Below are positions 19,549-62,015 of a stretch of 64,000 nucleotides of DNA, one piece after another. Positions within the stretch are counted from its first letter, which is position 1. Each line of letters starts with the position of its first letter. The translations under genes were made by a program, and so were the position numbers. Under the pieces are notes generated by a model that saw only the letters and a program-made list of their open reading frames with translations, was not told where the DNA came from and did not search any database. The DNA comes from a virus, in IMG/VR virus record IMGVR_UViG_3300047470_000343, positions 1 to 64,000 of that record. One strand, written 5' to 3'.

Positions 19549-20265
19549 ATGAGCGACGCAAGAAGCGCGAGCTCGCGGCAGCCCGAAAGTGGCGCCGCAG
19601 CACATCCGCTGGAGGAGGCCGCCGCCCAGGCCGCGGCCAATCCCAGTGACAAAGCCGCTCTCGCCGAGCTCTTCAACGCGCTTTATGAGCCGGTCGTCCG
19701 CTACATGCAGGCCCGCGTCTACGACCCGTGCCTTGCGGAAGACCTGGCGCAGGACGTGTTCGTGAAGCTCGTGCAGGGCATCGGCCGCTACACCGGCGGC
19801 GGCATCTACGGATGGGTGTGGGCGATAGCCCGCAGCACCGCGGCGGACCACTTCCGCCCGATGCGCAATCGTGGCTACGAGACGCCCACCGGCGAGATCT
19901 GGCAACTCGACGCCCCGAGCGCCGACATGGGCCCGGAAGAACTCGCCGAATGGGCGGACCTTCGGGTGGCAATCAACAGAAAGCTCTCCAAACTCCCCGA
20001 CGATCAGCAAGAAGTGTTGCGACTGCGCCTGATCGCCGGACTCTCTACCGCCGAGGTCGCTGAGGTAATGGCGAAGCCTGCGGGTACCATTCGCGTATTG
20101 CAGTGCCGCGCCCTTGCGAAGCTGCGGAAGCTGATGCCGGAAGGCAACAGTTCCATGGCTTCACTCCTGCTCTCGGCTACAGACCCGCAGCAGGAACAGG
20201 CTTTGATGAATGCGGCGCCAGTGGTCGTGACGGTGAGGGAGATTAGGCATGCTGAGTCGCGATAG
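19549..20265 (+). CDS. ECF RNA polymerase sigma factor, BldN/SigD-like
   Basis: Region 2 AEDLAQDVF..WVWAIAR..ADHFR; region 4 LPDDQQEVLRLR..GLSTAEVAEVM..GTIRVLQCRAL. Confidence 0.9.
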   Translation: MSDARSASSRQPESGAAAHPLEEAAAQAAANPSDKAALAELFNALYEPVVRYMQARVYDPCLAEDLAQDVFVKLVQGIGRYTGGGIYGWVWAIARSTAADHFRPMRNRGYETPTGEIWQLDAPSADMGPEELAEWADLRVAINRKLSKLPDDQQEVLRLRLIAGLSTAEVAEVMAKPAGTIRVLQCRALAKLRKLMPEGNSSMASLLLSATDPQQEQALMNAAPVVVTVREIRHAESR

Positions 20266-20635
20266 TGGCCACGCCGCGGAGCGCCTTGACCGATGCCTGT
20301 CGGGCGACGCAGTCCCACACGACGCGGACACCCGCAACGCGGTGACGCTCGCCCGGCTGCTCATGCCGAAGCGCCCCATCAGCCAGGCCGCCCGCGACCA
20401 CGCCTTCGAGGCGATGATGCGTGAGGCGGACCGCGTCGGCCGCACCCCCTCGAACACCGAAGCCGCCCCCGCGGATGTTGTTGACCCTGGGGTCAACATT
20501 CGAACTGCGAGCGCCGGCCACGGGCTCACCCTGCGCGTCGCCGACATCGAACACGTCGACGACGCGCGTATGGAGGAGATCGCCGCCCGGGTCGCGGAGC
20601 GCCTCGGGCAGAGAGCACCGGATCGGAACCCGTGA
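20249..20635 (+). CDS. hypothetical protein coupled to the sigma gene
   Basis: Overlaps the sigma stop and the next start. Confidence 0.65.
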   Translation: MLSRDSGHAAERLDRCLSGDAVPHDADTRNAVTLARLLMPKRPISQAARDHAFEAMMREADRVGRTPSNTEAAPADVVDPGVNIRTASAGHGLTLRVADIEHVDDARMEEIAARVAERLGQRAPDRNP

Positions 20636-22311
20636 GCGGACTGCAAGAACTGCGGGTTCTCCAGGAGGACATGGGCTCGGACGCCGTCACGTTCGAGAAC
20701 ACCCAAGAGGGCGTCACCTACCTGTTCATCAACCCGAACCAGAGCTTTGAGTCCGCAGTCAAAAGCGTGATGAGGGCCTGCCCTGACCTCACCCTCACCG
20801 AGGTCCAGGAGCTCATCCGCAAGCACTGCCACGACATCGTCGAGATGAACGCACGGATGGGCGCCGCTCAGCAGCCCATCCCGCGCTTCGACACCCCCTA
20901 TGACCTCGCCCCGGTCCCGGCAGAGGACAAGGGAGCGCACCGGCGGCCCCGGCCGCCCAGGTGGGCCCGTATCGCCGCCGTCGCCGCCCCGGCCCTGGTC
21001 GGCGGCACGCTGATCGCCCACTTCTTCAGCCCCGCCGGGGACAACGCCCAGGGCGGCTCCGGCAACGGCATCACCGTCAGCCAGCAGGACACGGCCAGCG
21101 TCTTCGACGACCCCACGTACAAGCAGTTCGTGGCCGACGGCAGCCTGCGCTGCCAGCCGCTCGGACAGTACGCGGCCAAGTGCGTCGACGAGGACGGCCA
21201 GATCATGCTCTCCGAGGCGAGCGTGGGCGACTCCGCCGTGTTCACGTTCTCCTACGACGACGAGAAGATCGGCTTCCGAGTCTTCGAGGACGCCTCGGAC
21301 GCCAAGCTCTGGTACTCCGAGGACGGCAACCGCCGGCTCTACGACAACATGAAGATCGTCGGCCGGGTTGTGCTCTGGGGCACGGACACCAAGCGCGTAC
21401 GCGACTGGGGCAACGCCCTTGCCACGCAGTCCTCCAACCAGTCTTCCGTCATGGGACACCAGATCCCGCAGAGCGCACTCAGCGCCCTTCCCCCGCGCCT
21501 GGCCGTGCTCGCCTTGGGCACCCTCGGCATTGGTGACACGAGCAAGGTCAAAGCGCCCGCCGGGTCCATCCATGCGGCGCAGACCCTGCGCGCGGTGGAA
21601 TTGGTCATGGGCCTCGCCGAGGACGATGACGGCCGCGGTTACAGGAACGTTCCTGCGGGCCCCAGTGACGCGGTTGCCGTCGCGGCGGATGCGCCCCGGC
21701 CGCCGGTGTGGGGTGCGGGCAACGGTGTCGGCCCGAGCGCTGTCGCCAGCCCGTCACCGGTGACCGACCCGGTGAGTACGGCCACGGCCCCGGCTCCCGA
21801 GCCTCAGCCTCCGGCCGCTGCCTCTCCGGCGCCTGAGCCCCCGGCGTCCACCGCGCCGACGGCTCCGGCAGCCCCTCCGCCCGCGACCGCACCCCCGGCG
21901 AGCACGACACCGTCCGCCCCCGCGTCGGCGCCGCCCGCGAGCGTGAGATCGGAACCCCCGGCGGACATCACCACCACCACGCTGCCGCCGGCCGACGCGA
22001 CGACTCCGCCGGTAGCGGTGAGCGAACCGGCCCCCGCGCCGTCGGAGCCCGCGGCGCCGACGCCGGTGCAGCCGGTGGCGGATGCCCCGCAGCAGGACCC
22101 CGTGCCGGTGGCCCCGGCTTCGGGCGAACTGGCTCCCGTCGACCAGGCGCCCGCCGATCCGGCGCCCGTCGAGTCCATCGAGTCGGTTCCTGCCGATCCG
22201 GCGGCGACCGAACCGGCCGAGGAGACACCGGCACCGTCCGACGCAGCCGAGGAGGACGGGGGCAGCGACGACCTGCTCATCCTGGACTCCTCATGGACAG
22301 TCGGAGCCTGA
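20632..22311 (+). CDS. single-pass membrane protein with Pro/Ala-rich tail, candidate anti-sigma factor
   Basis: TM IAAVAAPALVGGTLIAHFF, extracytoplasmic domain, PA-rich C-terminus; same operon as sigma. Confidence 0.6.
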   Translation: MSGLQELRVLQEDMGSDAVTFENTQEGVTYLFINPNQSFESAVKSVMRACPDLTLTEVQELIRKHCHDIVEMNARMGAAQQPIPRFDTPYDLAPVPAEDKGAHRRPRPPRWARIAAVAAPALVGGTLIAHFFSPAGDNAQGGSGNGITVSQQDTASVFDDPTYKQFVADGSLRCQPLGQYAAKCVDEDGQIMLSEASVGDSAVFTFSYDDEKIGFRVFEDASDAKLWYSEDGNRRLYDNMKIVGRVVLWGTDTKRVRDWGNALATQSSNQSSVMGHQIPQSALSALPPRLAVLALGTLGIGDTSKVKAPAGSIHAAQTLRAVELVMGLAEDDDGRGYRNVPAGPSDAVAVAADAPRPPVWGAGNGVGPSAVASPSPVTDPVSTATAPAPEPQPPAAASPAPEPPASTAPTAPAAPPPATAPPASTTPSAPASAPPASVRSEPPADITTTTLPPADATTPPVAVSEPAPAPSEPAAPTPVQPVADAPQQDPVPVAPASGELAPVDQAPADPAPVESIESVPADPAATEPAEETPAPSDAAEEDGGSDDLLILDSSWTVGA

Positions 22312-22319
22312 ACACCCCG

Positions 22320-22921: not shown

Positions 22922-23863
22922 TCAGGAGAACAGCAGCTTCCACGTGGCCGGGCCGGGGATGCCGTCCGCGTCGCCCTTCAGCGAGGCGTGCGCGAGCTGG
23001 AACGCCTTGGTGGCCTTCCGGTCGGACTCCGTCCACTTCGGGCCGGGGCCCGAACTGTAGTACTTGCCGTACCCCTTCTTCGTGAGCTGCCTGCCCAGCG
23101 CGGTGACGTGCACGTTCTTCTTGCCCGGCCCGAAGTACTGGCGGCCGGGGAACGGCGGCGCGGGCTTCGGGACGATCTTCGGGAAGTGCACGGGCGGAGT
23201 CGTCGGCTTGCTCGCCGTGTCGTCGCCCTTGGCCAGGGCGACGATCGTCTTGGCCTTCGCGAGGATCTTCCCGAACGGGATGCTGCCCGGGTCGCCGTGC
23301 CAGTTCTCGGGGGCGTGCATGTGCCCGCAGATGCCGGAGAACTTGTTCCACTCGGCGTACGACATGCGCACGCTGGTCGCGCCGTACGAGGACGGATAGG
23401 GCAGCCACTTGTCCGGCCCGGTGAGCGGGATGCCTTCGTTGAGGTGAAGCCAGGCGATGACCTCGGCCAGCTCGTCGTACGCCCACTCAGGGGCGTCCGG
23501 CCAGTAGATGTAATCCACCCCGGCCTTGAGCTTGCCCCACGACGTCTTGTGCGCCGGGTCGCAGGTGCCCACGAGCTCCAGTTGGATCACGTTCAGGGTG
23601 TTGGTCTCGACGCCGCCGCTCGCGTTCACCAGGGCCCGCGCGGAGCGGTTCAGCGCGAAGTGCTGGTACATCTCCAGCTTCTCCATGCTGATGAGCGGCA
23701 GGCCGGTCAGGTTCGGGGCTTCGGCTCCGTTGCTGTAGGAGACGACGCCCGTCCCCTCCGTCGTGTGCAGACACAGAACGTTGGGATCCATGAGGGATCC
23801 CTCGTACGTGTCGCCGTACCAGTGCGTGCCGCGTATCGCGCCGGGATACAGGGTGGTCGTCAT
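22922..23863 (-). CDS. endolysin: N-acetylmuramoyl-L-alanine amidase plus peptidoglycan-binding domain
   Basis: [27 protein letters not shown]; C-terminal [14 protein letters not shown]. Confidence 0.9.
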
Positions 23864-23935
23864 TGCGTGCGTCCTCCGAGACCGTGGGGCTTGGAGGACG
23901 CAGGGTGGCGACCGGAGAGGGTTAACGTCCCGGGC

Positions 23936-24535
23936 TCACTCCTCGCCCGGGTCGGCGTCGTCGGGGTACTGGAGGGCGTGCAGCGTCTCGGCGAGACGGG
24001 TCGCGAGGTCGGCGGCCGGGCCGGTCTGCTCGACTTGCAGCGGGCCCCCGGCGGCGCCGGTGAGCTCGACCTCCAGGTGGTCCTCCTTGCCGTACTGCTT
24101 GCGGTGCTGCCGCTCCAGATACCAGGCAGCCGCACGCCAGTCCGGGGGAGTCGTGATCGTCTCTTCGAGCACCTTCCCCGAGTGCGGGTCGAACTTCCTG
24201 TGCGTGGTGACGATGCCGCCGCGGCTGGCCCGGCGGATGTCGAGCGCTGCCGACAGCGCGGCCGCGGACCGGGCCCGCTCGATCTTCTCGAAGAACTCCA
24301 CGAACACGTCGAGCTCGGGGTCCGGGTCGGTGCCGGCCGCCCGGTCGACGCACTCCGTACGGCCGTAGGCCATCCACCGCAGGAACGTGGCCCGGGAAAT
24401 GCCCGCGTGAACGGCCGCCAGGTCCACGGCGAGACCCGCCCGGCTCGCCTCGATCAGCCGGTCCTCGACCTCGGGCGTCATCAGCCGCGCTCGCGCCGGA
24501 GTGGCGGAGCGGCGACGGTGCTTACGGCGAGCCAT
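23936..24535 (-). CDS. terminase small subunit-like protein
   Basis: HTH AAVHAGISRATFLRW; DWRAAAWYLER..YG; ELTGAAGGPL. Confidence 0.7.
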   Translation of the reverse strand: MARRKHRRRSATPARARLMTPEVEDRLIEASRAGLAVDLAAVHAGISRATFLRWMAYGRTECVDRAAGTDPDPELDVFVEFFEKIERARSAAALSAALDIRRASRGGIVTTHRKFDPHSGKVLEETITTPPDWRAAAWYLERQHRKQYGKEDHLEVELTGAAGGPLQVEQTGPAADLATRLAETLHALQYPDDADPGEE

Positions 24536-24561
24536 GGCGCGGACCGTAGATGATCACCTGG

Positions 24562-25194
24562 TTACTGTCCCGGCGTGAACAGATGCCCGCACTCCGGGCA
24601 GCACACGTTCTGGGAGCGCTCGTTGTCGCCGCTGTCGCCGTACCCGCGGTCGTCGAAGTCCTCACCGGTCAGGCGCTCCTGGGTTTCGTCGTCCTCGCCC
24701 GCAGGGCCTTGGGGCAGCTTCTCGGGGTCGACCTGCCGCAGGAGCTGTTCCATCTCGTCGTCGGTGTAGGCGAGCGAGTCGAACAGGTCGGCGTCGGACG
24801 TCGCGAGGTCTTCGAGGATCTCGGCGAGTGCAGCGGGGTACCAGCCGCCCGCCTCGCCCAGTCGGTTGAGGAGGATGAGCACGGCGTGCGCTTCACGGTC
24901 GTGGCTGGAGTACCAACCGCGGGTCACGGGCACCAGCCATCCGCCGTCGTCGTCCACCAGCAGCCCGTCGGGCATGGACTCGCCGCGGACCTGCATCTCG
25001 ATCAGCGCGGCGCGGCGGCCGTGCCCGGCGATCGTCAGGCCGGTGCGTTCGTCGACCACAGGCGTGTTGATGAACCCGTGCTCGATGATGCTCGCAATGA
25101 TCCGCTCGATCTCGTGCTTCTTCGGGTTCGCGGGGTCCGGCGGCAGGTCGGTCAGCGGGATGTACGAGATGTAGCGGGGCGCCTCAAGTGGCAT
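24562..25194 (-). CDS. ParB/Srx N-terminal domain protein with C-terminal Zn ribbon
   Basis: DPANPKKH..GFINTPVVD..IAGHGRRAAL; CPECGHLF. Confidence 0.8.
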   Translation of the reverse strand: MPLEAPRYISYIPLTDLPPDPANPKKHEIERIIASIIEHGFINTPVVDERTGLTIAGHGRRAALIEMQVRGESMPDGLLVDDDGGWLVPVTRGWYSSHDREAHAVLILLNRLGEAGGWYPAALAEILEDLATSDADLFDSLAYTDDEMEQLLRQVDPEKLPQGPAGEDDETQERLTGEDFDDRGYGDSGDNERSQNVCCPECGHLFTPGQ

Positions 25195-25483
25195 GTGCTG
25201 CGGCTCCTGACGCGCAGTGGGTGAGAGGTGGGGAGCGGCCAGCGGCCTCGCGAGCCCGCGGACTTCTACCGCGGCATCCCGGCTCGCTACCGGGACATGC
25301 CGTCATGGCCTGGCCGTCGGGCCGCTCCCCATGGCCGGCGTCGCCTCACAAGTCCGGAAGAGACGGCGCCGGTGCCCGCAGCGGGTCCGGCGGAACGCGT
25401 CTCCGCCGGGCTCACTGAGGGCGAGGCGGAACGTAAGCCACGACGCGCGCTTGTGTCTTGCGCTCCGCCTCTGGCAAATGCCG

Positions 25484-25539: not shown

Positions 25540-25653
25540 TCTGTTGTAACGAATTCCGGCCTCACTCCGTCCATAGGGCGAGAGATCAACCGGCGGCAGA
25601 CCCCCAGCTCCAAAGCCGGTACGACACCGGCACGCCAGAAGGGGATGACCTGC

Positions 25654-26229
25654 ATGTCCGAGGAAACGTCGAGCGGCGCGTCCGAGCAGACGCCGCCCGA
25701 GCCGACCCCCCAGGAACTCGCGCTGCGCGCCGCCTTGGCGTACCGCGTGATGGCCTGGTGGGAAGCCATGTGTGGCCCGATCATCAAGACCAACGCCGAG
25801 CGGATCCGGGACACCCCCGGAATGCTGACCACCCTGGCCGAGGTCGACGGCGCCCGGGTTGCGACGTTCACCGAGAGCAAGAGGCGCCCGTTCTTCGAGA
25901 TCACCGACCGGGACAAGTTCTTTGACTGGGCGGACGAGCAGGGCGAGACCGAGTGGGTCATCCGCAAGTCCTTCGAGAACGCGATCCTCAAGAAGCGTGC
26001 CCGGTGGAACGCGGCGACCGGTGAAGCGGTCGACTCCATCACCGGCGAGGTGATCCCCGGCGTGGTCCAGAACCCGGGCGGGGCGCACATCTCCGTACTG
26101 CCCACGTTCACGGACGCCGGGGCGGAACTCCTCGACAACGCCCTGAACGCCATCTTCGGGCAGGCTGCTGCCGCCCTGCCGATGCTCGGCGCGGCCCCGG
26201 CCGCCGAGGACGCGGAGGCCGGCGCATGA
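25654..26229 (+). CDS. phage hypothetical protein
   Basis: First gene of the replication operon; VDSITGEVIPGV motif common in phage recombination-region proteins. Confidence 0.65.
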   Translation: MSEETSSGASEQTPPEPTPQELALRAALAYRVMAWWEAMCGPIIKTNAERIRDTPGMLTTLAEVDGARVATFTESKRRPFFEITDRDKFFDWADEQGETEWVIRKSFENAILKKRARWNAATGEAVDSITGEVIPGVVQNPGGAHISVLPTFTDAGAELLDNALNAIFGQAAAALPMLGAAPAAEDAEAGA

Positions 26230-26519
26230 GCACGGCACCCAACTTCCGCTTCGCGCCCTGCGCCACCGTCGACCCCGAGGCCATGTTCCCGCTCCCGACG
26301 GACGAGGACGGCGTCGCCGCAGCCAAGCGGATATGCGGAGACTGCGACTTCCGCGCCCAGTGCCTGGAGTGGGCCCTGTCGCCCACCACCCGGGCCAACG
26401 AGGGCGTGTTCGGCGGCGCGTCGGAGAACGAGCGGCGCCGGATGAAGCGCGGCCGCAAGGTCCCGTACCGGATCGGCCCCATGCCCTCGAAGCAGCAGCG
26501 CCACGCCATCGACGCATGA
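26226..26519 (+). CDS. WhiB-family (Wbl) transcription factor
   Basis: C..DPEAMFP..AKRICGDC..QCLEWAL..GVFGG..ERR. Confidence 0.92.
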   Translation: MSTAPNFRFAPCATVDPEAMFPLPTDEDGVAAAKRICGDCDFRAQCLEWALSPTTRANEGVFGGASENERRRMKRGRKVPYRIGPMPSKQQRHAIDA

Positions 26520-30183: not shown

Positions 30184-30275
30184 TGTGCCCACACCCCTCC
30201 CCCTCGTGACTGTCCACATGTAAACTGTAATCCAGCGCAATGGCGGGGACGTAAGCCCAACCAGCCGCGCAACAT

Positions 30276-30335: not shown

Positions 30336-31895
30336 ATGACCGCAGGCACCGCCGAGAAGGCCCCCGACGAGACCGCCCCCGAGCCCGCCGAACAGTGGCC
30401 CCCCACCCGGCATCTCACCGTCGACGAGGCCATGGTGGCTGTCATGCGCGAGATCGGCGGCGTCGGCAAGAATGGGTGGAACAAGGCCCACGAGTACCAC
30501 TTTCGCGCCCAAGAGGACATCGTGGCTGCCGTCCGCGTGCCGATGGCCAAGTACGGGCTGCGGATGCTTCCCCGCGTCATTGAGCAGCAGCATTTTCTGC
30601 GCGGCCGGTCCAACGTCGCCATCCTGACGATGGAGTACGTCGTGCGCGGCCCGGGTGGCGACGTGATGGAGCCGTCCATCATCGTCGTCGGCGAGGGCGC
30701 GGACGTCTCCGACAAGGCGTCGAACAAGGCGATGACGGCGGCCAAGAAGTACGCGCTCGTCCAGGCCTTCGAGATCGCCAGCGAGAACGTTGCCGACGGA
30801 GACCGCGAAAGCCCGGAAAGCCTGGCCACGCCGCTCGACCCGTACGTCGAGGAACTCATGAAGCGGAGCGTCTGGTGCGACCGCGGTGCGCTCGGTGTTC
30901 TCCGTCAGCGCGCCATGGAGAACGGGCACGCCCACCTGGTGATGCAGGACGGATCGGGTAGGACGCTGCTCCAGACCATCGAGGCCCGCGGCGACGAACT
31001 CCTCGCGCAGCAGCGGGACGCCGAGCAGAAGCAGCGCGCAGCAGGAGAAGCGGCCTCCGGCGATCAGCCGCGGGCCGATCAGCCGGAGTACCACCGGTCG
31101 TCGCCTGACGGCGATGTCTGGGACCGGCCGCCGGCCAACTCGCCGAAGCGCCCGCAGCCCGCGCCCGCGCCGGAGCAGAACCTGCCCGACCCGCAGGAGA
31201 TCGAGGGGCGTCTCGCCGACGCCGTGAAGGACCCGGCGACCGCGGTGAAGGCGCTGAACGACATCCGCAAGCACTACACGCCCGCCGTACTCAAGATGGT
31301 CCAGGTCCCGACGCAATGGGGGCAGGTGGACGGGAACTCGGCGATCACGTTCGCGCTGAGGGAGGTCGCACAGCAGGGCGCTCGACCGGCCCCGGCCGCC
31401 CGCCCCGCGGTCGAGGCGCCCCCGCGGGCCCCGGAGCCCGAGCCGGAGCCGGAGGAGGCGCCCCAGGCCCCCGAGCGGCCGGAGGCCGTGCAGCCGGAGC
31501 CGGAGGCCGCGGCGGCGGCCGAGAAGGAGCCGGAGAAGCCGACGTGGCCGCCAGTGCGGGAGTTTGCCCCGGCGCCTGACGGCCAGAGCAAGACGGAGCG
31601 GGCCCGCTGGCTGCTCGATCGGGAAGCCGAGTTCCAGGCGCAGGTGCTCGGGATGCTCACGCTGGAGTACGTCGCGGATCTCCTCCCGGCCGGAGCGACC
31701 GGCATCGAGGACATCCCCGGCAACGTGAAGCTCCAGAACCTCATTGTCGAGAACCGTCCGCGGGTGGTCGCCGCTCTGATCGGAGCGGGGATGAAGCGGC
31801 AGGCCGAGGAGTACGCCGCCTTGGGTGAGCGAGCACCGGCGCGGAACATCGAAGCCATCATCAGGAGCGCGCTCTCGTTGCAGTCGAGTCTCTGA
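30336..31895 (+). CDS. ERF-family ssDNA annealing protein with long C-terminal extension
   Basis: VGKNGWN..YHFR..GEGADVSDKASNKAMTAAKKYAL. Confidence 0.85.
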   Translation: MTAGTAEKAPDETAPEPAEQWPPTRHLTVDEAMVAVMREIGGVGKNGWNKAHEYHFRAQEDIVAAVRVPMAKYGLRMLPRVIEQQHFLRGRSNVAILTMEYVVRGPGGDVMEPSIIVVGEGADVSDKASNKAMTAAKKYALVQAFEIASENVADGDRESPESLATPLDPYVEELMKRSVWCDRGALGVLRQRAMENGHAHLVMQDGSGRTLLQTIEARGDELLAQQRDAEQKQRAAGEAASGDQPRADQPEYHRSSPDGDVWDRPPANSPKRPQPAPAPEQNLPDPQEIEGRLADAVKDPATAVKALNDIRKHYTPAVLKMVQVPTQWGQVDGNSAITFALREVAQQGARPAPAARPAVEAPPRAPEPEPEPEEAPQAPERPEAVQPEPEAAAAAEKEPEKPTWPPVREFAPAPDGQSKTERARWLLDREAEFQAQVLGMLTLEYVADLLPAGATGIEDIPGNVKLQNLIVENRPRVVAALIGAGMKRQAEEYAALGERAPARNIEAIIRSALSLQSSL

Positions 31896-33448: not shown

Positions 33449-33766
33449 CTATCCGGACGTATCCGACGCCGAGGAAGTCATGGCCTCCACGATGGGTGCG
33501 ATCATGCTCGGCTTCCACACCAGGTCGTACGTGGTCTGCGAAGCCGCGAGGACGGCCAGGACCGTACCGACGGCCGGGATGTGCTTGAACTGATCCAGGC
33601 CGCCCGTCGCCGCGAGGGTCGCGAGGCTGCCCAGCAGCGACGCGAGGACAGCCACGGTCCGCTTGGTGTTCGCGGACCACTTCGGCTTCTGGATGATGGC
33701 GGTCAGGGGCGGGAGGAGCGCGCCTACCGCGGACCCGGTGACGATGGAATCGAGAGTGCTGCTCAT
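33449..33766 (-). CDS. putative holin
   Basis: Small protein with about 3 hydrophobic segments at the end of the tail genes. Confidence 0.65.
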   Translation of the reverse strand: MSSTLDSIVTGSAVGALLPPLTAIIQKPKWSANTKRTVAVLASLLGSLATLAATGGLDQFKHIPAVGTVLAVLAASQTTYDLVWKPSMIAPIVEAMTSSASDTSG

Positions 33767-33842
33767 GAGGCCTTCCCTTGGCTGGATGGAGTGAGGCACC
33801 CCGGACCATGCCCGCAGGCCGGCGCTTGCGTCCCGGGCCGCG

Positions 33843-34244
33843 TCAGTCGTCCGCCAGGTCCCCAGCGATCTCCGCGGGCGGCTCCGGCGCCGGAGCGTCG
33901 GTCAGGTTCGCGATCATCCGGCGAAGGCGGTGGATGTGCTCGACCGCGGCCGCCTTCCAGCGACGCCACTGCCGCTGTTCCTCCTCCAGGCGCTCGACGC
34001 GGGACTCCAGCGTCGTCACCCGCTCCAGCGTCGCCGCGTTCGTCTCACGCTGCTGCTCCAGGAGCTGGGTGAACCCGTTCGTCACCGTCTGCACCGCGTT
34101 CACGTAGGTGCTGGCCTCGGCCGTGTGTGCGTCCGTGTCGGTCTTGTGCCTGTTCTGGCGGTACACCAGCCAAGCGCCGCCCAGCACGCCGAGCATGCCG
34201 AACACGGGCGTCAGGATGGGCGCCAGGGGGATAAGCCAGGCCAT
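33843..34244 (-). CDS. membrane protein with coiled coil (lysis-cassette type)
   Basis: N-terminal TM plus LERVTTLESRVERLEEE. Confidence 0.65.
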   Translation of the reverse strand: MAWLIPLAPILTPVFGMLGVLGGAWLVYRQNRHKTDTDAHTAEASTYVNAVQTVTNGFTQLLEQQRETNAATLERVTTLESRVERLEEEQRQWRRWKAAAVEHIHRLRRMIANLTDAPAPEPPAEIAGDLADD

Positions 34245-34357
34245 GGCGCCTCCTCGGTCGATGGTCGGTCAGGGTGCGCGGGGGCCGGGGCCGAAGCCCG
34301 CGGCCCCCCGCAGCCTGCACGCTGCACGACCGCGCCCGTTTACGTCCCGGGCGGCCG

Positions 34358-41764: not shown

Positions 41765-41829
41765 GCGCTCTCTCCTTCTGCGAGCCGGAGAGCAGAGAGT
41801 GGGCGGCCGGGCGGTCTACTGTCGCCCGC

Positions 41830-47936: not shown

Positions 47937-48351
47937 TGACCTGCACCATTCCTCTCCGGGCAGCGGCCGCCAACATCTTGCGGTGGCCGGTCATACGGGG
48001 CTGCCGCGGGCTGTTCCCCTGGGGAACAGCGGCGGCGTCATCAAGGGCCGGCGGCCGGTGGACCGACACGGGCTCCTTGCGGCGCCTCTCCGCGGCGAGA
48101 ATCGACACTTCCTCGATCACCTGCGCCAGGAGTTCCTTGGTCACCGTCCAGCCACCAACGGGGGTGGACATGACGCAGGAGTCCTCCGGCAGTCCGTCGA
48201 GGAGTGACGTCAGTCGCCGGAGTCCGATGAATCCGGGCTGTCCTGGTCGGAGCCAGACTCGTCGGGCGTCGATGCGGTGGTAGCGGGAGAGGTCGGACTC
48301 GACGTCTGCGAATCGCTCGCGGAGGAGCCGCCCAGTCCGAAGAGCTTTCCC
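47929..48351 (-). CDS. tail assembly chaperone, -1 frameshift extension (gpT-like)
   Basis: Frame open from the GGGAAAG slippery site: DVESDLSRYHRID..LLDGLPEDS..GWT..ELLA. Confidence 0.8.
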   Translation of the reverse strand, partial: GKALRTGRLLRERFADVESDLSRYHRIDARRVWLRPGQPGFIGLRRLTSLLDGLPEDSCVMSTPVGGWTVTKELLAQVIEEVSILAAERRRKEPVSVHRPPALDDAAAVPQGNSPRQPRMTGHRKMLAAAARRGMVQVSG

Positions 48352-48764
48352 AGTTCCACCCCGTAGACCATGGCGAGGGCCTTGGTCAGGCGTACGTACT
48401 CGGGGACCGACGGCTTGTGCGCCTTGAAGTCCTCGAACGCGTCCTCGCCCAGGAGCGCCTTGTAGATCTCCTTCACCGCGGCGATGAGCTGGCCGGGAAG
48501 GTTGCCGTGCCGGAACACGAGATCGACGATGGCGCCGGTGCCGATGTCGCCCGAGGAGTTCATGGCCTCGCCGAGCAGCCCCATCAGATTGAGGTCGTCA
48601 TCCAGCAGCGGGTCCAGCGCATCGGCCGGGAGCTCCGCCGGGAACAGGAGATCCCAGTCGTCACGCACCTTCACGGTGATGCCGTGAGGGAACTTCACCT
48701 CACGCCGGTCGGCAGAGATGTCGATGGCGTACGTCGCGTCGGTCTTGGCCGTCTTGGCGGTCAT
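48210..48764 (-). CDS. tail assembly chaperone (gpG-like)
   Basis: GGAGG RBS; upstream of the tape measure; contains the slippery site. Confidence 0.8.
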   Translation of the reverse strand: MTAKTAKTDATYAIDISADRREVKFPHGITVKVRDDWDLLFPAELPADALDPLLDDDLNLMGLLGEAMNSSGDIGTGAIVDLVFRHGNLPGQLIAAVKEIYKALLGEDAFEDFKAHKPSVPEYVRLTKALAMVYGVELGKLFGLGGSSASDSQTSSPTSPATTASTPDESGSDQDSPDSSDSGD

Positions 48765-48875
48765 GGGTCGGGTCCTCCCGGTGGGTGTCGAAGCACCGGG
48801 AAGGTAGGAACCCTGATCGGCTTGCGTCTCGGGGTGCGCCGGACCGCCGGAATTCCGCACCTGGGCAAGATCGTT

Positions 48876-50919: not shown

Positions 50920-51513
50920 TCACCGCGCCGGAGCGAACGCCGGGTCGTCGGTGAGCAGGTACCAGGCGTCGGCGTCGTCGCCGCCCTGCACGGCCAGGCG
51001 CAGCGGCAGCACGGCCTCCTTCGACTTCTGGAGGTCCGACTGCACGCCCTCCATCTGCATGGCGCGCGGCACGACGTACCGGTAGTGCTTGCCGCCGTCG
51101 ATGACCTCGACCACGGCCGCGATTTCGCCGCGGCCGCCGACGCGAGGCGGCACGAACTTGTAGTGCTTCGGGGTGCCGCCGCCACCGGCAGGCGTGATTT
51201 CGGTGATCTCGCCGCCGCCGAACACCGCCGTGAAGTTGGCGCCGTTCCACTGCTGGAGGTCGACCTCGATCGTCGCCGCGTCCGAGGTCTGGAAGGTGCG
51301 CGACGGGTAGTCCGACTGCGCGCTCTTCACGGTCTCGAACTGGGGCTCTTCGTTGAACTTGAGCGAGTCCTCGGTGGTGAGGCCGACGCTGTACCAGCCG
51401 GAGCCCATGACGGCGGTTGCGTCCGCCGGGGCCGCGGTGCCGACGGGCGCAAGCCATACCTGGGTGCGTGCGGGGATGACGATCTGGGTGTTGTTCGTGA
51501 TGTCGCCACTCAT
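50920..51513 (-). CDS. major tail protein
   Basis: VWLAPVGTAAP..WYSVGLTTED pattern; position. Confidence 0.85.
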   Translation of the reverse strand: MSGDITNNTQIVIPARTQVWLAPVGTAAPADATAVMGSGWYSVGLTTEDSLKFNEEPQFETVKSAQSDYPSRTFQTSDAATIEVDLQQWNGANFTAVFGGGEITEITPAGGGGTPKHYKFVPPRVGGRGEIAAVVEVIDGGKHYRYVVPRAMQMEGVQSDLQKSKEAVLPLRLAVQGGDDADAWYLLTDDPAFAPAR

Positions 51514-51571
51514 GGCGGTGCTCTCCTCGGGCCGGGGTTAAAGGCCCGGCCACGATGGAGAGCGGGAGGGG

Positions 51572-51772
51572 TTACCGTCCCGGGCTCACCCTTGGCGCGG
51601 GCCCCAGGAGCGGCAGCGGGACGCCGAACGCGGCCGCCACGATCTGCCGGACACGGTCCCGTTCCAGGAACTCGGCGATCGTCCGCCGCGTGGCTGCGCA
51701 CACCGGATGCTGGAAGCGGATGACACGCACCGGCACCGGGAACTGCCAGACGTGGACTTCGTGCTCGGTCAC
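51572..51772 (-). CDS. small hypothetical protein
   Basis: GTG overlapping the upstream stop, with AGGAG RBS. Confidence 0.4.
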   Translation of the reverse strand: MTEHEVHVWQFPVPVRVIRFQHPVCAATRRTIAEFLERDRVRQIVAAAFGVPLPLLGPAPRVSPGR

Positions 51773-52216: not shown

Positions 52217-52474
52217 TCAGCCGCGGGCGGCGTAGCCGTTGCGGCGGAGCTGACGGGCGTAGTCGGGGCTCACGAGCACCGTCGAGCCCGGCAGGTACTC
52301 CTTCGCCCCAATGCGCAGGTGATGCGCGAGGGTCAGCTTCTCCGGCTTCTGCCCCGGGCGCAGCGGCGGCCCGGCGATAGCCACGGTCTCCTCGGCGGGC
52401 GCTTCCGCCGGCGCTACGGTCTCGGTCGTCTTGGCGTCCGTCTCAGCGGGCGTCTTCCTGGTGTTGGTCGTCAT
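52217..52474 (-). CDS. small virion-associated hypothetical protein
   Basis: YLPGSTVLVSPDYARQLRRNGYA. Confidence 0.6.
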   Translation of the reverse strand: MTTNTRKTPAETDAKTTETVAPAEAPAEETVAIAGPPLRPGQKPEKLTLAHHLRIGAKEYLPGSTVLVSPDYARQLRRNGYAARG

Positions 52475-52521
52475 GAGGCAGAAGAGTGCCGACGCCGACC
52501 GCTACTGTCGCGCGCTGCGGG

Positions 52522-54926: not shown

Positions 54927-55448
54927 CTACTCGCCGAGCTGCGCGCGCAGGGTGGCGACGATGTGCTCGGCGTCCTGGCGCTGGACTTCCGCACCGACCG
55001 ACAGCAGGAGCCGCGAAGCCGGCGTGCGGTAGGGGCCCATGCTGATGTGCTCGATCAGCCGCTTCGTGGAGCGCCAGACGTTGCCGTACGGCGGTACGGG
55101 CTCGAACACGCCGTCGGGGTCGGTAGGTGCGAGGCCGGTCAGCTCGTCGACGATGCAGTCGCCGATCTCCGCGGGCAGGAGGGCATCGGGGCCGACAGGC
55201 TTCGGCGGGGCCGTCGCCCTGGTCGGCGCGGGCGGGGCCTCCAGCGGAGCGACCTCCGGCGCCTTCGTCTCGACCTCGGCAGCGGAGACGGCCTTGTTCT
55301 CGATCTCGGCTGTGCCGGTCTCGGTGTCGTCCGCGACGGCCTTCGCCTCCGCCGGGGCAGTCTCCGCCTCGACTACGGGCACGGTCTCCTCTACGACGGG
55401 CGCGGGTTCCGCCGCGGCCGCAGCCTTGCGGGTTCGGGGTGTTGCCAC
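54927..55448 (-). CDS. hypothetical protein
   Basis: GGAGG RBS; acidic Ala/Pro-rich N-terminus. Confidence 0.65.
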   Translation of the reverse strand: MATPRTRKAAAAAEPAPVVEETVPVVEAETAPAEAKAVADDTETGTAEIENKAVSAAEVETKAPEVAPLEAPPAPTRATAPPKPVGPDALLPAEIGDCIVDELTGLAPTDPDGVFEPVPPYGNVWRSTKRLIEHISMGPYRTPASRLLLSVGAEVQRQDAEHIVATLRAQLGE

Positions 55449-55554
55449 AGCATCCTCCAGTTGAGCGGGGTTGGGGCGACACCCTGACCCGCGGGGTTCG
55501 TTTACGTCGCGCTGTGCCGTCCCCGGGGGTCCGGCACAGCGCGACCGTCAGGGG

Positions 55555-56037
55555 TTAGGAGTAGGTGAAGCCGTTCGTCTTGGTCACGGCCCCCGCGTCG
55601 TCGCCGACGATGACGTTCTTCGCACCGGCGGTACCGGCCGGAGTGGTGACCTGGATGGCCTCGGACGACAGGATCTTGAGGTTGGTGCCCGCCGTGCTGC
55701 CGAACTTGACGTCGGCGACGCCGTCGAGGTTCGTGCCGGTGATGGTCACCACCGTTCCGCCGGCGGCCAGGCCGGTGGCCGGGGACACCGTCGCGACGGT
55801 CGCCGCAGGGAACAGCTTGTCGATCTGCGACTGACGCACCACCTGCCCGGCCCGGAACATGATCGTCTTGATCGAGCCCTCGGGAGCGCGGTCACGGCTG
55901 TTCGTGGGGCGGGTGCCCTCGTCGAACCGGCGCGTGGCGTACACGTCCTGGGTGACGACCAGCTCGGGGTCGGATACTGCACTGGTCGGGAAGGCGGCCT
56001 TGGTGATGCGGGCACCAGCGGCGTTGTACAGGCCCAT
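55555..56037 (-). CDS. IPT/TIG (Ig-like) domain protein, probable virion decoration
   Basis: VSPATGLAAGGTVVTITGTNL..VKFG..TPAG..FTY. Confidence 0.85.
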   Translation of the reverse strand: MGLYNAAGARITKAAFPTSAVSDPELVVTQDVYATRRFDEGTRPTNSRDRAPEGSIKTIMFRAGQVVRQSQIDKLFPAATVATVSPATGLAAGGTVVTITGTNLDGVADVKFGSTAGTNLKILSSEAIQVTTPAGTAGAKNVIVGDDAGAVTKTNGFTYS

Positions 56038-56114
56038 GAGGAGCCCCTTTCTCAGGTGTGGTCGAGTGCCGCAGCGTGCCCGACGAGAGGCCCTACAGTC
56101 CCCGCCTGGGGCCG

Positions 56115-57628: not shown

Positions 57629-57728
57629 GGCGGTTCCTCGCTCTCTCATGGGTACGGGGCCGGACCGTATGGCCCGGCCCCGTATTACGTCGCCGTCATC
57701 GGGGCCCGGTGTGCGGGCCCCGGCTCGC

Positions 57729-59030
57729 TTAGACCGGGTCGGTCCACGTGCCGATGACGAACGACTCCGGGCGGCTGACCTCCAGGGCCAGACGCTCGTC
57801 GGCGCGGAACGTGAGGACGCCGCGCTCGAAGTTGTCGCTGTTCTCCGAGGAGACGGTGACCGAGACGTTCTCCCGGTCGTAGATCTGGGCGCCCATGCCG
57901 AAGGAGCCGAGGAGGTACTTGTCGTCGGGCATGGCCGTGGTCTCGACGACGTTGACGCGCCACACGCGCTTCTGGGCGCCGACGGCGACCTGGAGGGCGA
58001 CGCGGAAGGCGCCGTTGTCGTCGGTCTCGACCTCGACCTGCTCCCACATGGTGGGGCTCAGCACGACGCCGGTCGGCTCGTACTCCGCCAGGAGCGCCTT
58101 GGTCATGGCCCGGCGCATCTGGATGCTGAACTTGTCGCTGTTCTGACCGGTGTACGTCTGCACGCCGGTCGTGTTGAACAGGCCGGTGATCTTGGTGCCG
58201 TCGGTGCCGACGCTGTGGAGCAGGTCCCAGTCCTCGGCGAACTTGATGCCCTCGATGAGACGCGAGTTGATGAACTGCTTCAGGCGCGGCTCGTCGCTGA
58301 GGATGTTCTTGTGGCCGTCGAGCATGTGGGCGATCTCGCTGACCGGGAAGGACACCGGCTGGAGGGTCAGCTTCGAGCGGGGGGCCCGCCCGAACACGTC
58401 GGTGTCGAGGCCGGTCGGCGCGGACGTGCCGTCGGCCGCGCGACGCTCGGCGACCTGCGCGGCGTTGTTCACCCAGCCGGTCTCGCGGATGCCCTGAAGT
58501 ACCGCGTTCTTCGTGGTCGCCTTCGGGAACAGGTCCCGAATGTGGAACTTGCGGCGCTGCGCGTCGGTGATCCCGAGATCCTGGACGCCGCCGAGGGCCG
58601 CGTGGGTCTGGGTGCCGGCCGTCAGGGAGAAGATCGACTTCCCCTCCATCTCGGCGCGGATGAACGGGCGGTCCTTGAACTGCGCGCGGGCCGCGGCCTG
58701 GTAGGCGTCGGACGCGACGAACATGTCGCCGAGGGTCTTGACCTCGGTGTCGGAGCCGGAGCCGCCGCCGCCGTAGTACTGACCCGCGGCCGAGGAGCCA
58801 GCGGGGGCGTCGAGGTACTGGCCGAGGGCTTCGGCGCCGGTCGCGGCGTCGATCAGGCCCTTGATCTCCTGGGCGTCCTTGACCGCCTTGACGTAGGCGT
58901 TGCGCTGCTCGGTCGAGACGACGAATGCGCCGTTCTCTTCTTTGAACGTCCCTGCGATGCGCTCGGCTTCGGCGGACTTCTCGTTGAGCTGGCTCTTCAG
59001 TGAGCGCAGAAGGCTCTGGTCGGTAGGCAT
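57729..59030 (-). CDS. major capsid protein, HK97 fold
   Basis: N-terminal delta-like domain; IRDLFP, FRADERLALEVSRPESFV. Confidence 0.93.
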   Translation of the reverse strand: MPTDQSLLRSLKSQLNEKSAEAERIAGTFKEENGAFVVSTEQRNAYVKAVKDAQEIKGLIDAATGAEALGQYLDAPAGSSAAGQYYGGGGSGSDTEVKTLGDMFVASDAYQAAARAQFKDRPFIRAEMEGKSIFSLTAGTQTHAALGGVQDLGITDAQRRKFHIRDLFPKATTKNAVLQGIRETGWVNNAAQVAERRAADGTSAPTGLDTDVFGRAPRSKLTLQPVSFPVSEIAHMLDGHKNILSDEPRLKQFINSRLIEGIKFAEDWDLLHSVGTDGTKITGLFNTTGVQTYTGQNSDKFSIQMRRAMTKALLAEYEPTGVVLSPTMWEQVEVETDDNGAFRVALQVAVGAQKRVWRVNVVETTAMPDDKYLLGSFGMGAQIYDRENVSVTVSSENSDNFERGVLTFRADERLALEVSRPESFVIGTWTDPV

Positions 59031-59196
59031 TTTGGTTGCACTCCCTGTGCTGGACGGGCGATGGCGTGCGCATCACGCCCGGCCAGCACCGGGACGTCTC
59101 AACGCTGGGGCGCATGGAAAGGCACAGGGGGTGTTTGCGTCTCGGGCTCCCGGCCACGCAGGGACGCGCAGCGGGGAGCCCGAGGGAAACCGCAGG

Positions 59197-61194
59197 TCAG
59201 AGTGCGAGTGCGGCCAGTGCCGCCTTGACCTCCGTGGGGTCCAGGTGCACGGTGTCGTCCTCGTCCGGCTCGTCGTCGGGCTCGTCGGCCGGGGTGTTCC
59301 CCGGGGGAACAGCCGTGTCCGCGTAGGGGATCGTGCTGTCGGCCGGTCCGTCGTCGGCGGTGGCGCTGTCGGCGAGTTCGTCATAGGCGGCGGGATCGTC
59401 GTCCTCGTCGTCGGGCCAGCCGTCGGTGATCGAGTACTTGTCCAGCCACGAGTCGGAGTCGTCCGCGTCCGCGTCGTCGTCCATGGGGACGCCCTTCTTC
59501 GAAAGGGCGTCGAGGAGTTTCCCGATGGTGGGCCGCAGGTGTTCCAGGTGCGCGGGTCCGGCGTCGGACACCTCGATCAGCGCCGTGGCGTCCTGGAGAG
59601 CCCGGTCGGTCGGCTTGATGAACCGCTCGCGGGTGGTCTCCGTGGCGTCGGCCAGTCGCTCCGGCCCGGCAACAGGGGTGGCCACGGTGGTGAGTTCCAC
59701 CTGAACCGGCACGCCCAGGTCCACGTCCCGGCCCGACACGGTGTACGGGATCGCGTACGTGTCCGTGTCGCCGTCGTCGTAGCGGCTGACGATGATCCGG
59801 TCGGGGTAAGTCGCCTCGATCGCCACCCAGCAGCATTCCGGCTGCTCGGGGCCGCCGCGGTCGTCGTTGTCCGAGGCGAGCAGTGCGCGCGCGGCCTTGC
59901 TGAGCTGGTCGCGGAGCTGCTCGTAGGAGTAGGGCATGGGTGTGCTCATGAGTCGCTCCGGGAGCTGAATGGGTTCGGCGGACTTGGCCTCGATCACGAT
60001 CTGCGCGGCCGACTTCTGTTCCAGGCCCGCGGCGGCGTTGGCCGACTTCGCCTCCATCACGATCTGCGCCGCCGACTTCGCCTCCATCGGGGCAGCGGGT
60101 GCGGCCGCGGTCTCGTCGGGGGCCGCACCGAGCGGCACCTCGAACTCGTCACCGCCGCGGACCACGTGGAGCGTCGTGAAGGTGACCGGTGTGGCCGGCA
60201 CCGGGTCGGGGCCGTTCAGGTCGTAGCCGAGGGTCACGTGCGGGGTGAACCCGTGGTCGTCGCGGACCGCTTCGGAGTACGGGGACCCGGACAGGGCGAG
60301 TACAACCTGCTGCCGCAGTTCCGCGAGGCCCGGCACGTCGACCGGCACCCACGTGGGTACGCCGTCCCCGGTGTCGGGGAAGACGCCGATGCCGCCGAGA
60401 GTGCCCGCCAGCGGGCCCGTGTCGTTCACGGCCGGGGTGACGATGTCGCGGAGATCGTCCGGGTGCCCGCCGAGTTCGCCGACGTCGCCGAGGTAGGCGA
60501 GCGTGATGTGCAGGTTCTCCGGGGCGGTGCCGTCGGGCTGGGCGATCGTCTCGGCGACGTCTGCGGGGATCTTCAGCGCGATCATCACGCCGCGCCCTAC
60601 CTGCGACTCGGCGGCCTTCAGCTCGATCGCCGACCACGTGGCCTTGCGCTCCAGTTCGTTGCGCGCCCGGGTCGCGGCCTTCACCTCGATACTGCGGGTC
60701 ATCGGGTGCGCGCCGTGCAGCACGGGGCTCACCTCGTACAGGTCCAGGTCGTGGATGATGCGGACGCCGTCGTGGCGCTTGGATGCGCCGCCCGGCGGGA
60801 CCTTGAAGCCGATGGAGAACTGCGCTTCGCCGTTCTCGTGCCACTGGCGGACCTGTTCGTAGGCGTCGCGGCCGCGGGTGGTGCGCAGGTTGTACTGGCA
60901 GGTCGCGACGAGCGCCCCGGCCTCCTTGGGCCACACGGAGCCGCCCGGGATCGAGGCGAAGCGCGGATCCCCCGGCATCCATTCCTCGATCGACAGGACA
61001 CTGCCGACCGGCTCTTTCCAGTCGTGGCTCCACACCGGCTTCACTCGGCGCGTGGCCAGGGTGCGGGTGAACGCTCCGGGGATGATGAGGTCTTCGACAT
61101 CGTCGACCACGCCGGTGACTGCGAAGATGGCGCGGACGATGCCCTTTCCGCCGCGGGCGCGGCGCAGCATTGCAGTGGGCGGCGGGCTCGGCAC
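59197..61194 (-). CDS. HK97-type prohead protease fused to a 2H phosphoesterase domain
   Basis: WSHDW..FSIGF..LYEVSPV protease motifs; HITL and HVTL 2H motifs. Confidence 0.88.
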   Translation of the reverse strand: MPSPPPTAMLRRARGGKGIVRAIFAVTGVVDDVEDLIIPGAFTRTLATRRVKPVWSHDWKEPVGSVLSIEEWMPGDPRFASIPGGSVWPKEAGALVATCQYNLRTTRGRDAYEQVRQWHENGEAQFSIGFKVPPGGASKRHDGVRIIHDLDLYEVSPVLHGAHPMTRSIEVKAATRARNELERKATWSAIELKAAESQVGRGVMIALKIPADVAETIAQPDGTAPENLHITLAYLGDVGELGGHPDDLRDIVTPAVNDTGPLAGTLGGIGVFPDTGDGVPTWVPVDVPGLAELRQQVVLALSGSPYSEAVRDDHGFTPHVTLGYDLNGPDPVPATPVTFTTLHVVRGGDEFEVPLGAAPDETAAAPAAPMEAKSAAQIVMEAKSANAAAGLEQKSAAQIVIEAKSAEPIQLPERLMSTPMPYSYEQLRDQLSKAARALLASDNDDRGGPEQPECCWVAIEATYPDRIIVSRYDDGDTDTYAIPYTVSGRDVDLGVPVQVELTTVATPVAGPERLADATETTRERFIKPTDRALQDATALIEVSDAGPAHLEHLRPTIGKLLDALSKKGVPMDDDADADDSDSWLDKYSITDGWPDDEDDDPAAYDELADSATADDGPADSTIPYADTAVPPGNTPADEPDDEPDEDDTVHLDPTEVKAALAALAL

Positions 61195-61282
61195 GGCGGG
61201 TTCCTCCTAGGCGGGGCTCTCGATGCGCGCACCGTGCCCCGCCCGGGGGGTTAGCGTCCCGTCGTGCCCTTCCGGCCGGGCC

Positions 61283-61912
61283 TCACTCCCACGGCTTGCC
61301 CTTCTTCTTCTTGGGCTTCTTGGGGTCCTCGCCGTCGTCCGGCTCCTCTTCCGGGTCCTCGGTCGAGCCGTCGTCCGCCGCGGCGTAGGGGTCCTCTTCG
61401 TCGTCCGCGGCCGGGTCGTTGGGCACGGCTTCGTCCGCGGTGCCGTAGTCCAGCGAGAGGCCGCCGTCATCCGCGGCCGCCGGATCCGCGGCGGGATCGC
61501 CGGCCGCCGGGTCCTGCATCGCCGGGTCCTGCGCTGCGGGATCCATCGCGGGGTCCGGCTGGTCGCCGGTGCCGCCGGACTGCGCCATAGCGGCGTCGTC
61601 CACGTCGATGGCCCACGTGTCCGGGTCGGAGTAGCGCCACACCTGCCCGGACTCGTCACGGACCCAGCCCGTCAGCGTGCCGTCCTCCGCCTTGTCCAGC
61701 CACGCCTGTTCGCCGTTGCTGCCGGTGAAAGAGGCGTACGCCTGCGCCGGATCGGTCTCGTCGCCCTCGTCGTAGGCGTCGCCCGCCCACGGCCGGGCGT
61801 CATCCTGATGCGGTGGCTGGAGCTCCGGCGGCTGCTCGGCAGCCGGGTCCATGCCCTGCGCCGCCGGGTCCTGGGACGGGGGCAGCGCCTTCACCTCGAA
61901 TCTGTAGTCCAC
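61283..61912 (-). CDS. acidic low-complexity head-associated protein
   Basis: Starts FEVKA; DPA repeats; lies in the head module. Confidence 0.65.
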   Translation of the reverse strand: MDYRFEVKALPPSQDPAAQGMDPAAEQPPELQPPHQDDARPWAGDAYDEGDETDPAQAYASFTGSNGEQAWLDKAEDGTLTGWVRDESGQVWRYSDPDTWAIDVDDAAMAQSGGTGDQPDPAMDPAAQDPAMQDPAAGDPAADPAAADDGGLSLDYGTADEAVPNDPAADDEEDPYAAADDGSTEDPEEEPDDGEDPKKPKKKKGKPWE

Positions 61913-62015
61913 GCCGCGGACAGTGAGGGCGCGCCCGGTCTTGTGTCCCGGGCGGCCCGCGCCGACCCTTCCCGAACCGGTTGTAGCGCCTCGTACGGGT
62001 CGCTACGCTTCTCGT

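Follow-up and report, generated by a model that had tools for sequence, protein, structure and literature searches.

Phage-specific promoter classes and phage sigma cascades (e.g. SPO1 gp28 and gp33/34, phiEco32 gp36) are well known. The described promoters that lie closest to those considered here are the ones of BldN (CGTAAC-N16-CGTTGA, as given in an excerpt of PMC2375139) and of ShbA (CGTAAC-N16-CGATGA, as given in an excerpt of PMC12019637), together with the degenerate consensus of the primary sigma factor HrdB (YSWMS-N16-18-YANNNT) which the latter excerpt quotes. Here we describe a 64,000-nt window (the whole stretch of DNA analysed, i.e. positions 1 to 64,000) of the IMG/VR virus record IMGVR_UViG_3300047470_000343, a 93,785-bp high-GC virus whose closest relative among isolated phages is the Streptomyces phage Gilgamesh (129 kb), and in it a two-block motif (hereafter class 1) that recurs upstream of the late genes. 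A first-pass annotation had interpreted this motif as many separate late promoters, read by the BldN/SigD-like sigma factor of the element itself or by its WhiB-like protein together with a host sigma. Judged from its sequence features, class 1 represents real late promoters, ~20 in each genome, with a sigma-70-family geometry. The promoter nature and the many separate copies of the earlier interpretation hold; neither of the two proposed readers is supported. We argue that class 1 is most likely read by the host RNA polymerase with HrdB, that it is probably assisted by a late factor of the phage which recognises the extended upstream block, and that the phage sigma (which is of the extracytoplasmic function, ECF, type) most likely reads a second and rarer promoter class (class 2) and not class 1. 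The probability that we attach to this explanation as a whole (class 1 as late promoters used by HrdB plus a phage factor, the phage sigma on class 2) is about one in two.

A two-block motif precedes the late genes

The class-1 pattern (G[ACG]GAC-NN-[TA]A[AG]-N13-14-[CT]ANNNT, taken unchanged from the first-pass annotation) has 16 matches in the window (15 minus-strand and one plus-strand; Table 1), as compared to 0.245 on average, and never more than 2, in 200 first-order Markov simulations. Fifteen of the 17 sites listed previously match it exactly, which upholds the claim of a repeated motif; the remaining two (57664 and 59114) had already been flagged as variants. Two class-1 sites were absent from that list (4231-4260 and 25430-25459, both on the minus strand), and two further ones are situated past the window (genome positions 87395 and 91131, minus strand). 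Taken alone and window-wide, the upstream half shows no enrichment (20 matches vs 14.2 expected), and therefore the specificity lies in the two blocks together at their fixed spacing, as well as in their placement. A position weight matrix (PWM) trained on relatives only assigned scores of at least 18.7 to 18 sites of the genome, the maxima of 20 null runs spanning 6.8-18.8. Along the late arm, a match is carried by 14 of the 19 gaps of at least 40 nt; two more gaps hold variants and one holds a class-2 site.

The motif is conserved among the relatives of the element. All 148 matches that we counted across 28 related loci (Gilgamesh and 27 from IMG/VR) lie on the gene strand, with none on the opposite one, and the pattern had no matches in three distant loci. 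Four whole genomes contain 19, 20, 19 and 23 sites, respectively, and 4 of these 81 fall inside predicted genes. The spacer is N14 in 170 and N13 in 22 of the 192 distinct family sites. When each position was left free in turn across the family sites, position 1 was found to be G in 192, A in 33, C in 10 and T in 0 cases, and position 2 to be C in 128, G in 44, A in 20 and T in 0; G3, A4 and C5 each reached 96-98%, T was present at position 8 in 74/197 and A at position 9 in 192/215 cases, the second block opened with C (167), T (25) or G (13) in the 205 cases counted, and its last T was retained in 192/197. The unconstrained flanks show A and G at -4 and -3, plus a C immediately 5' of the motif. 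Two blocks separated by a spacer that varies by no more than 1 nt, located between genes and pointing to the downstream one, are features of a bipartite promoter, in which GSGAC would occupy the -35 position, the triplet W-A-R would follow 2 nt later, and CANNNT would stand at -10, 13-14 nt after the triplet. The genes found behind class-1 sites (endolysin, small terminase, protease, capsid, tail genes and a giant gene of 8175 amino acids) cover structural, lysis and packaging functions, in agreement with the proposal that the late region is driven by many separate promoters and not as one long operon.

The start codons are phased to the motif. In the four whole genomes, 27 of the 81 sites are followed, 5-8 nt after the second block, by an ATG or GTG that opens an open reading frame (ORF) of at least 50 codons (17 at 7 nt, 6 at 8, 3 at 6 and 1 at 5; offsets of 3, 4 and 9-12 nt did not occur), shifted windows yielding ~1.3% per offset as a control. 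Phased starts coincide with the annotated starts of Gilgamesh gp56, gp62, gp71, gp146 and gp149, and with that of one gene of a Thermobispora plasmid (see below); the distances of 7, 8 and 7 nt reported earlier for the sites at 24543, 52483 and 61920 were correct on re-measurement. Leaderless mRNAs are common in actinobacteria, and the phasing fits such mRNAs arising from real promoters, in line with how it had been read before. Furthermore, the RNA downstream of the leaderless sites is unusually unstructured (mean z +1.35 vs background). Transcription would most likely start 7-8 nt after the last T, with about one third of the transcripts being leaderless. Hairpins in the 5' region were considered as a part of the motif and rejected (54 leadered sites, 40-nt downstream windows: mean z 0.14 relative to the genome background, with just 15% below -1).

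Class 1 is specific to the phage. Within four Streptomyces genomes the pattern has 11-19 matches inside the phage and ~3-6 in the remaining 7-8 Mb of each, a reversed-pattern control giving 0-10 matches per genome; a scan for a host regulon with the N14 pattern in four host chromosomes found the control level only and no host enrichment. The likeness to CGTAAC, on which the first-pass annotation had drawn, is borne out in print as far as the BldN- and ShbA-type promoters themselves are concerned (in the excerpts cited above) and is weak across the family, since AAC or TAAC represents a minority form in class 1 (position 10 is A in only 51/201 cases). Unlike the BldN and ShbA promoters, class 1 lacks the GTAAC -35 feature (sharing a partial TAA(C) only) and has CANNNT instead of CG(A/T)TGA at -10; the block found 16-17 nt after the GTAAC position reads S-G-T, with C in only 62/170 sites, and does not constitute a CGT-type -10 element. 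The WhiA motif GACAC was rejected as an identity for the upstream block, as A and C follow GAC (positions 6 and 7) in only 50 and 96 of 170 sites; in the sepX complex, the WhiA binding site is placed upstream of the -35 element (excerpt of PMC10243135).

A rarer ECF-type class accompanies the phage sigma

The sigma factor encoded at 19549-20265 (Table 1) scores 90 bits against the NCBIfam ECF superfamily model TIGR02937 (cut-off 42.9) and consists of regions 2 and 4 only, which places it within the ECF superfamily; its scores against the BldN model TIGR02952 (103 bits, cut-off 206.45) and the ShbA model (106 bits, cut-off 209) remain below the cut-offs. Its best PDB matches are 6dxo_A and 9isn_F, which we take to be BldN and ShbA, respectively. 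Homologs are present in 6/6 relatives of 90% completeness or more, in Gilgamesh, and adjoining 5/5 integrated prophages; they form two clades (A and B) that are ~37% identical and differ in their predicted specificity loops. The residues that would align with ShbA H93 and K94 are missing in the phage sigma, while the aspartate aligned with ShbA D97 is kept (D100, invariant in the family). In an excerpt of PMC12019637, ShbA D97 is described as contacting the C:G pair at -12, and the kept aspartate would fit a sigma reading a C-initial block, be it that of class 1 or of class 2. The region upstream of the sigma gene has conserved blocks and no plus-strand class-1 or class-2 site; in it (window 19420-19500, plus strand) we noted a block that is in part palindromic (TTTCGAT...CGAAT) as well as the word CTGACGGAAGAT, both conserved in clade-A relatives, which may represent an operator and a leader element.

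Class 2 (TGTAAC-N16/17-CGT(C/A/T)) has the textbook ECF form, and resembles the BldN and ShbA promoters in its GTAAC -35 element, its 16-17 nt spacer and its CGT-type -10 element. The four whole genomes contain 3, 8, 8 and 4 class-2 matches (nulls 1.2-1.7), and in them the class precedes the replication operon and the gene of a conserved small Cys-rich protein (144 amino acids). Its sequence co-varies with the sigma clade: the clade-A form is TGTAACG, 16-17 nt, CGTC(C/T)A, and the clade-B form TGTAACA(G), ~15-16 nt, CGTT or CGTA, CGTC being found genome-wide in 10/11 clade-A and 0/12 clade-B matches. In 23/23 family loci we found a syntenic copy that lies ~6 kb downstream of the sigma gene and reads CGTC in 10/10 clade-A and CGTA in 13/13 clade-B loci, its spacer and flank being also clade-specific. 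The clade-A form has 4 matches on the phage-plasmid of S. kronopolitis and none on four host chromosomes.

Which factor reads the late promoters

Primary sigma factors read bases such as the invariant GAC of class 1, followed by an A and a T four bases apart, and the whole class-1 motif fits the degenerate HrdB consensus. A direct reading of class 1 by the phage ECF sigma (in which GSGAC or TAA(C/G) would act as the -35 element, and the CANNNT region would provide the -10 element) draws support from the conservation of this sigma in all the near-complete Streptomyces relatives and integrated prophages tested, from the phage specificity of the motif, from the resemblance of GSGAC to the canonical ECF -35 element GGAAC, and from the pairing of a D97-equivalent aspartate with a second block that mostly begins with C. 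We nevertheless regard it as improbable. One relative has the motif and lacks the sigma: a plasmid of Thermobispora bispora (NZ_CP039125.1) has the structural module in common with the family (a capsid protein 45.6% identical, as well as the portal, giant gene, protease and tail genes) and harbors 11 class-1 sites (0.66 expected), which precede genes for the giant protein, protease, tape measure, tail and lysin, while a sigma search of it gave 0 profile matches and 0 to PF04542 (vs 1 each in Gilgamesh and G007, the positive controls). Of further sigma-less members of the Thermobispora lineage, our searches recovered only one fragment, 26% complete. Class 2 stands at chance level on the same plasmid (2 matches vs a null of 2.0, with no extended similarity). 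Moreover, co-variation of class 1 with the sigma clade had to be rejected, the motif being essentially the same in clades A and B (only a G to C shift at position 2) in spite of their differing specificity loops; a better-fitting ECF-type class exists and does co-vary; and a TAAC-N16 arrangement leading to a six-base CGT-type -10 element would leave only 4 nt to the leaderless start codons. The sigma that had been put forward as the reader of the late promoters is thus disfavoured by three lines of evidence, i.e. the copies in a sigma-less relative, the absence of clade co-variation, and the presence of a separate class that co-varies.

If HrdB is the sigma involved, the holoenzyme might act unaided, and the upstream block could then be mainly an operator through which a prophage repressor silences the late promoters in the plasmid state, in a manner comparable to the stoperators of mycobacteriophage L5. 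The geometry and the invariant bases agree with YSWMS-N16-18-YANNNT, each genome has ~20 asymmetric, co-oriented sites between genes, members of the family exist as plasmid-like prophages, and the motif survives without the phage sigma. We consider this option unlikely nonetheless, as the host chromosomes are nearly empty of such sites despite their abundant HrdB promoters; because they hold almost none, class 1 is not an ordinary HrdB promoter. Furthermore, positions 1-2 avoid T, the first -10 position shows a preference for C, and operator-repressor pairs would rarely stay unchanged at capsid identities of 45-64%. An activation of class 1 by the WhiB-like protein together with a host sigma appears very improbable. 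The gene is a genuine member of the Wbl family, and Wbl proteins are described as binding to region 4 of the primary sigma (excerpt of PMC10243135), yet PF02467 is found in 2/5 of the motif-carrying relatives and is missing from the other three (G007, G006 and Gilgamesh), and tblastn found no match in G007 or Gilgamesh.

Several observations weigh against the explanation that we prefer (HrdB assisted by a phage factor on class 1, the phage sigma on class 2). The sigma is present in every near-complete or integrated Streptomyces family member tested, and is the only recognisable transcription factor common to the four whole genomes; the co-variation of class 2 with the sigma clade counts as one event, because it follows a single phylogenetic split; and the candidate late factor treated below (the 144-amino-acid protein) has no Pfam, PHROGs or PDB-profile match. 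The Thermobispora sites may be read differently, because their spacer is one base shorter (N13 in 10/11 sites vs 22/192 in the Streptomyces family), and the element carries several transposases: it may be decaying, with its sigma possibly lost recently. Finally, the choice of C over T at the start of the second block (167/205) and the absence of T at positions 1 and 2 (0/235 and 0/192) are odd for plain HrdB; this T avoidance and C preference suggests that class-1 sites could be built to need a helper.

A candidate late factor and a possible cascade

Leaving aside proteins with a recognised role in the virion, in packaging or in partition, the 144-amino-acid protein is the only one found by tblastn in both G000 and the Thermobispora element, and it is also encoded in all three Streptomyces-family whole genomes. 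The invariant residues of its family include H36, W38, C75, C78, C90, G101, G102 and R107 (H98 being nearly invariant), and a CxxC...C...H pattern with a basic tail is kept across 229 representative clusters. Its gene has a class-2 promoter in 4/4 whole genomes; among plasmid-borne cellular homologs, 2/4 match a scripted GTAAC-N17-CGTC pattern just upstream, and a third shows by eye a near match (ATAAC). One homolog, on a 53-kb plasmid, has non-phage gene surroundings and no class-1 site.

In the order of events that we propose, the early genes would be transcribed from a separate box followed by a hairpin, presumably by the host polymerase; the phage sigma would then read the class-2 promoters and drive the middle genes (the replication operon and the gene of the 144-amino-acid protein); and the class-1 promoters would fire last, through the host polymerase with HrdB and a phage factor on the extended upstream block. 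A more specific version, in which the late promoters are read by HrdB polymerase re-targeted by the 144-amino-acid protein (as a zinc-ribbon-like factor) and which would amount to a three-tier cascade (host sigma, phage sigma, late activator), we put forward as a tentative and rather doubtful possibility.

Hairpins sharing the loop ACGAGCGA are located in the window at 5826(-), 8729(-), 8896(+), 13505(+), 19191(-), 25518(+), 28877(+) and 30284(+); several of them have a conserved box (TTGAYN-5 nt-TACNNT) ~33 nt upstream and are followed by CGCTCC, with which the loop could pair as a pseudoknot. The box and the hairpin together look like an early promoter plus leader RNA.

The element, its family and the individual sites

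The capsid protein of the element has 27 relatives in IMG/VR (64-99% identity) and 32 in Streptomyces genomes, many of the latter on separate contigs of ~125-138 kb, one of which is a named complete plasmid of S. kronopolitis; PLSDB returned 7 full-length capsid matches (63-86% identity) on Streptomyces plasmids of 125-133 kb. The family is thus found as ~125-138 kb plasmids or as integrated prophages in dozens of Streptomyces genomes, and the element is accordingly a member of a widespread phage-plasmid family. According to a gene map based on third-position GC, the minus strand encodes head, tail, lysis and packaging functions between ~62 kb and 22 kb, and the same late-gene types recur beyond the window. 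Pfam and PHROGs assignments comprise capsid, prohead protease, ERF, SSB, endolysin, small terminase, ParB-like, DnaC-like and WhiB-like proteins; Rfam and tRNA scans of the window gave no matches. The record opens with a near-perfect palindrome of ~42 nt (window 1-42); seen alongside the par genes and the plasmid-like relatives, this palindrome is suggestive of a special replicon end. In the Thermobispora record (NZ_CP039125.1, L116-L119), the first ~37 kb recur at the end with the same protein accessions (unique length ~108 kb), which could reflect an assembly concatemer or a terminal redundancy.

Both variant sites lie next to the major capsid gene. The one at 57664 has one-mismatch copies in four closely related loci (L003, L004, L006 and L007) and a pattern match in a fifth (L002); the same stretch (57640-57700, minus strand) forms a GC-rich strong hairpin right after the capsid gene, and more distant relatives have a hairpin there without the motif. 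The upstream half of the site at 59114 is retained before the capsid gene in 27/27 IMG/VR relatives, with a second block that is different and T-rich. In the 5' leader of the capsid gene (59031-59110, minus strand), a block of ~30 nt with a short hairpin is invariant in 27 relatives (capsid identity down to 64%) and can be recognised in the Thermobispora plasmid as well; the block matches no Rfam family and may be a cis-regulatory RNA.

Table 1. Promoter-like sites and regulatory genes (window positions, unless marked as genome positions).
Feature	Position	Strand	Remarks
Class-2 site	2613-2642	-	Upstream of 2121-2579; homologous site in G002 at 92005
Class-1 site	4231-4260	-	Unlisted earlier; pattern match, PWM 28.9; overlaps predicted start of ORF 3895-4248
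Phage ECF-type sigma factor gene	19549-20265	+	Pfam regions 2 and 4 and Sigma70_ECF
Class-1 site	23902-23931	-	Upstream of endolysin gene 22922-23863 (PHROGs); syntenic copies in sigma-neighbourhood loci
Class-1 site	24543-24571	-	N13 spacer; small terminase gene 23936-24535 (PHROGs), ATG 7 nt past second block
Class-1 site	25430-25459	-	A at position 1; upstream of ParB-like gene 24562-25194 (PHROGs); PWM 25.2; homologous site in G002
Class-2 site (TGTAACG-N-CGTCCA)	25545-25573	+	Upstream of rightward replication operon (from 25645, including WhiB-like gene); syntenic copy 23/23
WhiB-like gene	26226-26519	+	PF02467, E 1.8e-16
Class-1 site	30246-30275	+	Sole plus-strand site; upstream of ERF recombinase gene 30336-31895; early-type hairpin follows
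Class-1 site	33805-33834	-	Upstream of 33449-33766
Class-1 site	34319-34348	-	Upstream of 33843-34244; followed by very stable hairpin (-34.2 kcal/mol)
Class-1 site	34629-34658	-	Upstream of 34358-34573
Class-1 site	39552-39581	-	Upstream of 34667-39505 (1612 amino acids)
Class-1 site	41796-41825	-	Upstream of 40796-41764
Class-1 site	48801-48830	-	Upstream of 48210-48764 (matches Gilgamesh at tail assembly chaperone genes)
Class-1 site	51552-51581	-	Upstream of 50920-51513 (matches Gilgamesh gp64)
Class-1 site	52483-52511	-	N13 spacer; ATG of 52217-52474 comes 8 nt later
Class-1 site	55481-55510	-	Upstream of 54927-55448
Class-1 site	56073-56102	-	Upstream of 55555-56037; PWM weak (14.9), pattern match
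Variant site	57664-57693	-	T at position 10; fails pattern, PWM <12; overlaps strong hairpin after capsid gene
Variant site	59114-59143	-	Upstream of major capsid gene 57729-59030; PWM upstream half 17.8, second block -4.1
Class-1 site	61231-61260	-	Upstream of prohead protease fusion gene 59197-61170; PWM 32.8
Class-1 site	61920-61949	-	GTG of 61283-61912 comes 7 nt later
144-amino-acid protein gene	genome 91335-91769 (L200:5335-5769)	-	Homolog of Gilgamesh gp44; just upstream of portal region

Significance and comparison with known systems

What is new here is the occurrence of such a promoter set in an unstudied but common family of Streptomyces phage-plasmids; our literature search found no description of the class-1 motif or of the Gilgamesh group. 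A less usual feature is that the small promoter class seems to belong to the encoded sigma, and the 20-copy late class to another reader: as the sigma that one would first think of probably does not read the late promoters, the choice of their reader becomes a well-defined question. A map of three promoter classes, precise enough for the prediction of start sites, provides a testable model of gene timing and corrects several annotated start codons. Moreover, phage-specific promoters that are silent in the host, together with a matching ECF sigma, represent possible orthogonal expression parts for Streptomyces.

Among the systems with which class 1 may be compared, the stoperators of mycobacteriophage L5 and the start-associated sequences of cluster K are alike in being ~20-30 asymmetric, co-oriented and intergenic copies in an actinobacteriophage. 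L5-type stoperators are bound by the phage repressor and have no associated -10 block, whereas class 1 has a second block at a fixed spacing and, in a third of the sites, a start codon phased at 7-8 nt; the fixed second block and the phased start codons therefore speak for initiation, rather than for repressor binding or translation signals. The middle promoters of T4 (a MotA box and a sigma-70 -10 element) likewise have a phage box in place of the usual -35 element, at a fixed distance from a host-type -10 element and in many copies before one temporal class of genes, and differ from class 1 in that the GAC core of the -35 element is kept in the latter; relatives of MotA or AsiA were not seen here, although no search aimed at them was made. 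In the cascades of SPO1 and phiEco32, as would be the case here, a phage sigma redirects the host core polymerase to a phage-specific promoter class; unlike in those cascades, the phage sigma of the present family seems to own a small class (3-8 sites per genome) and not the large late one.

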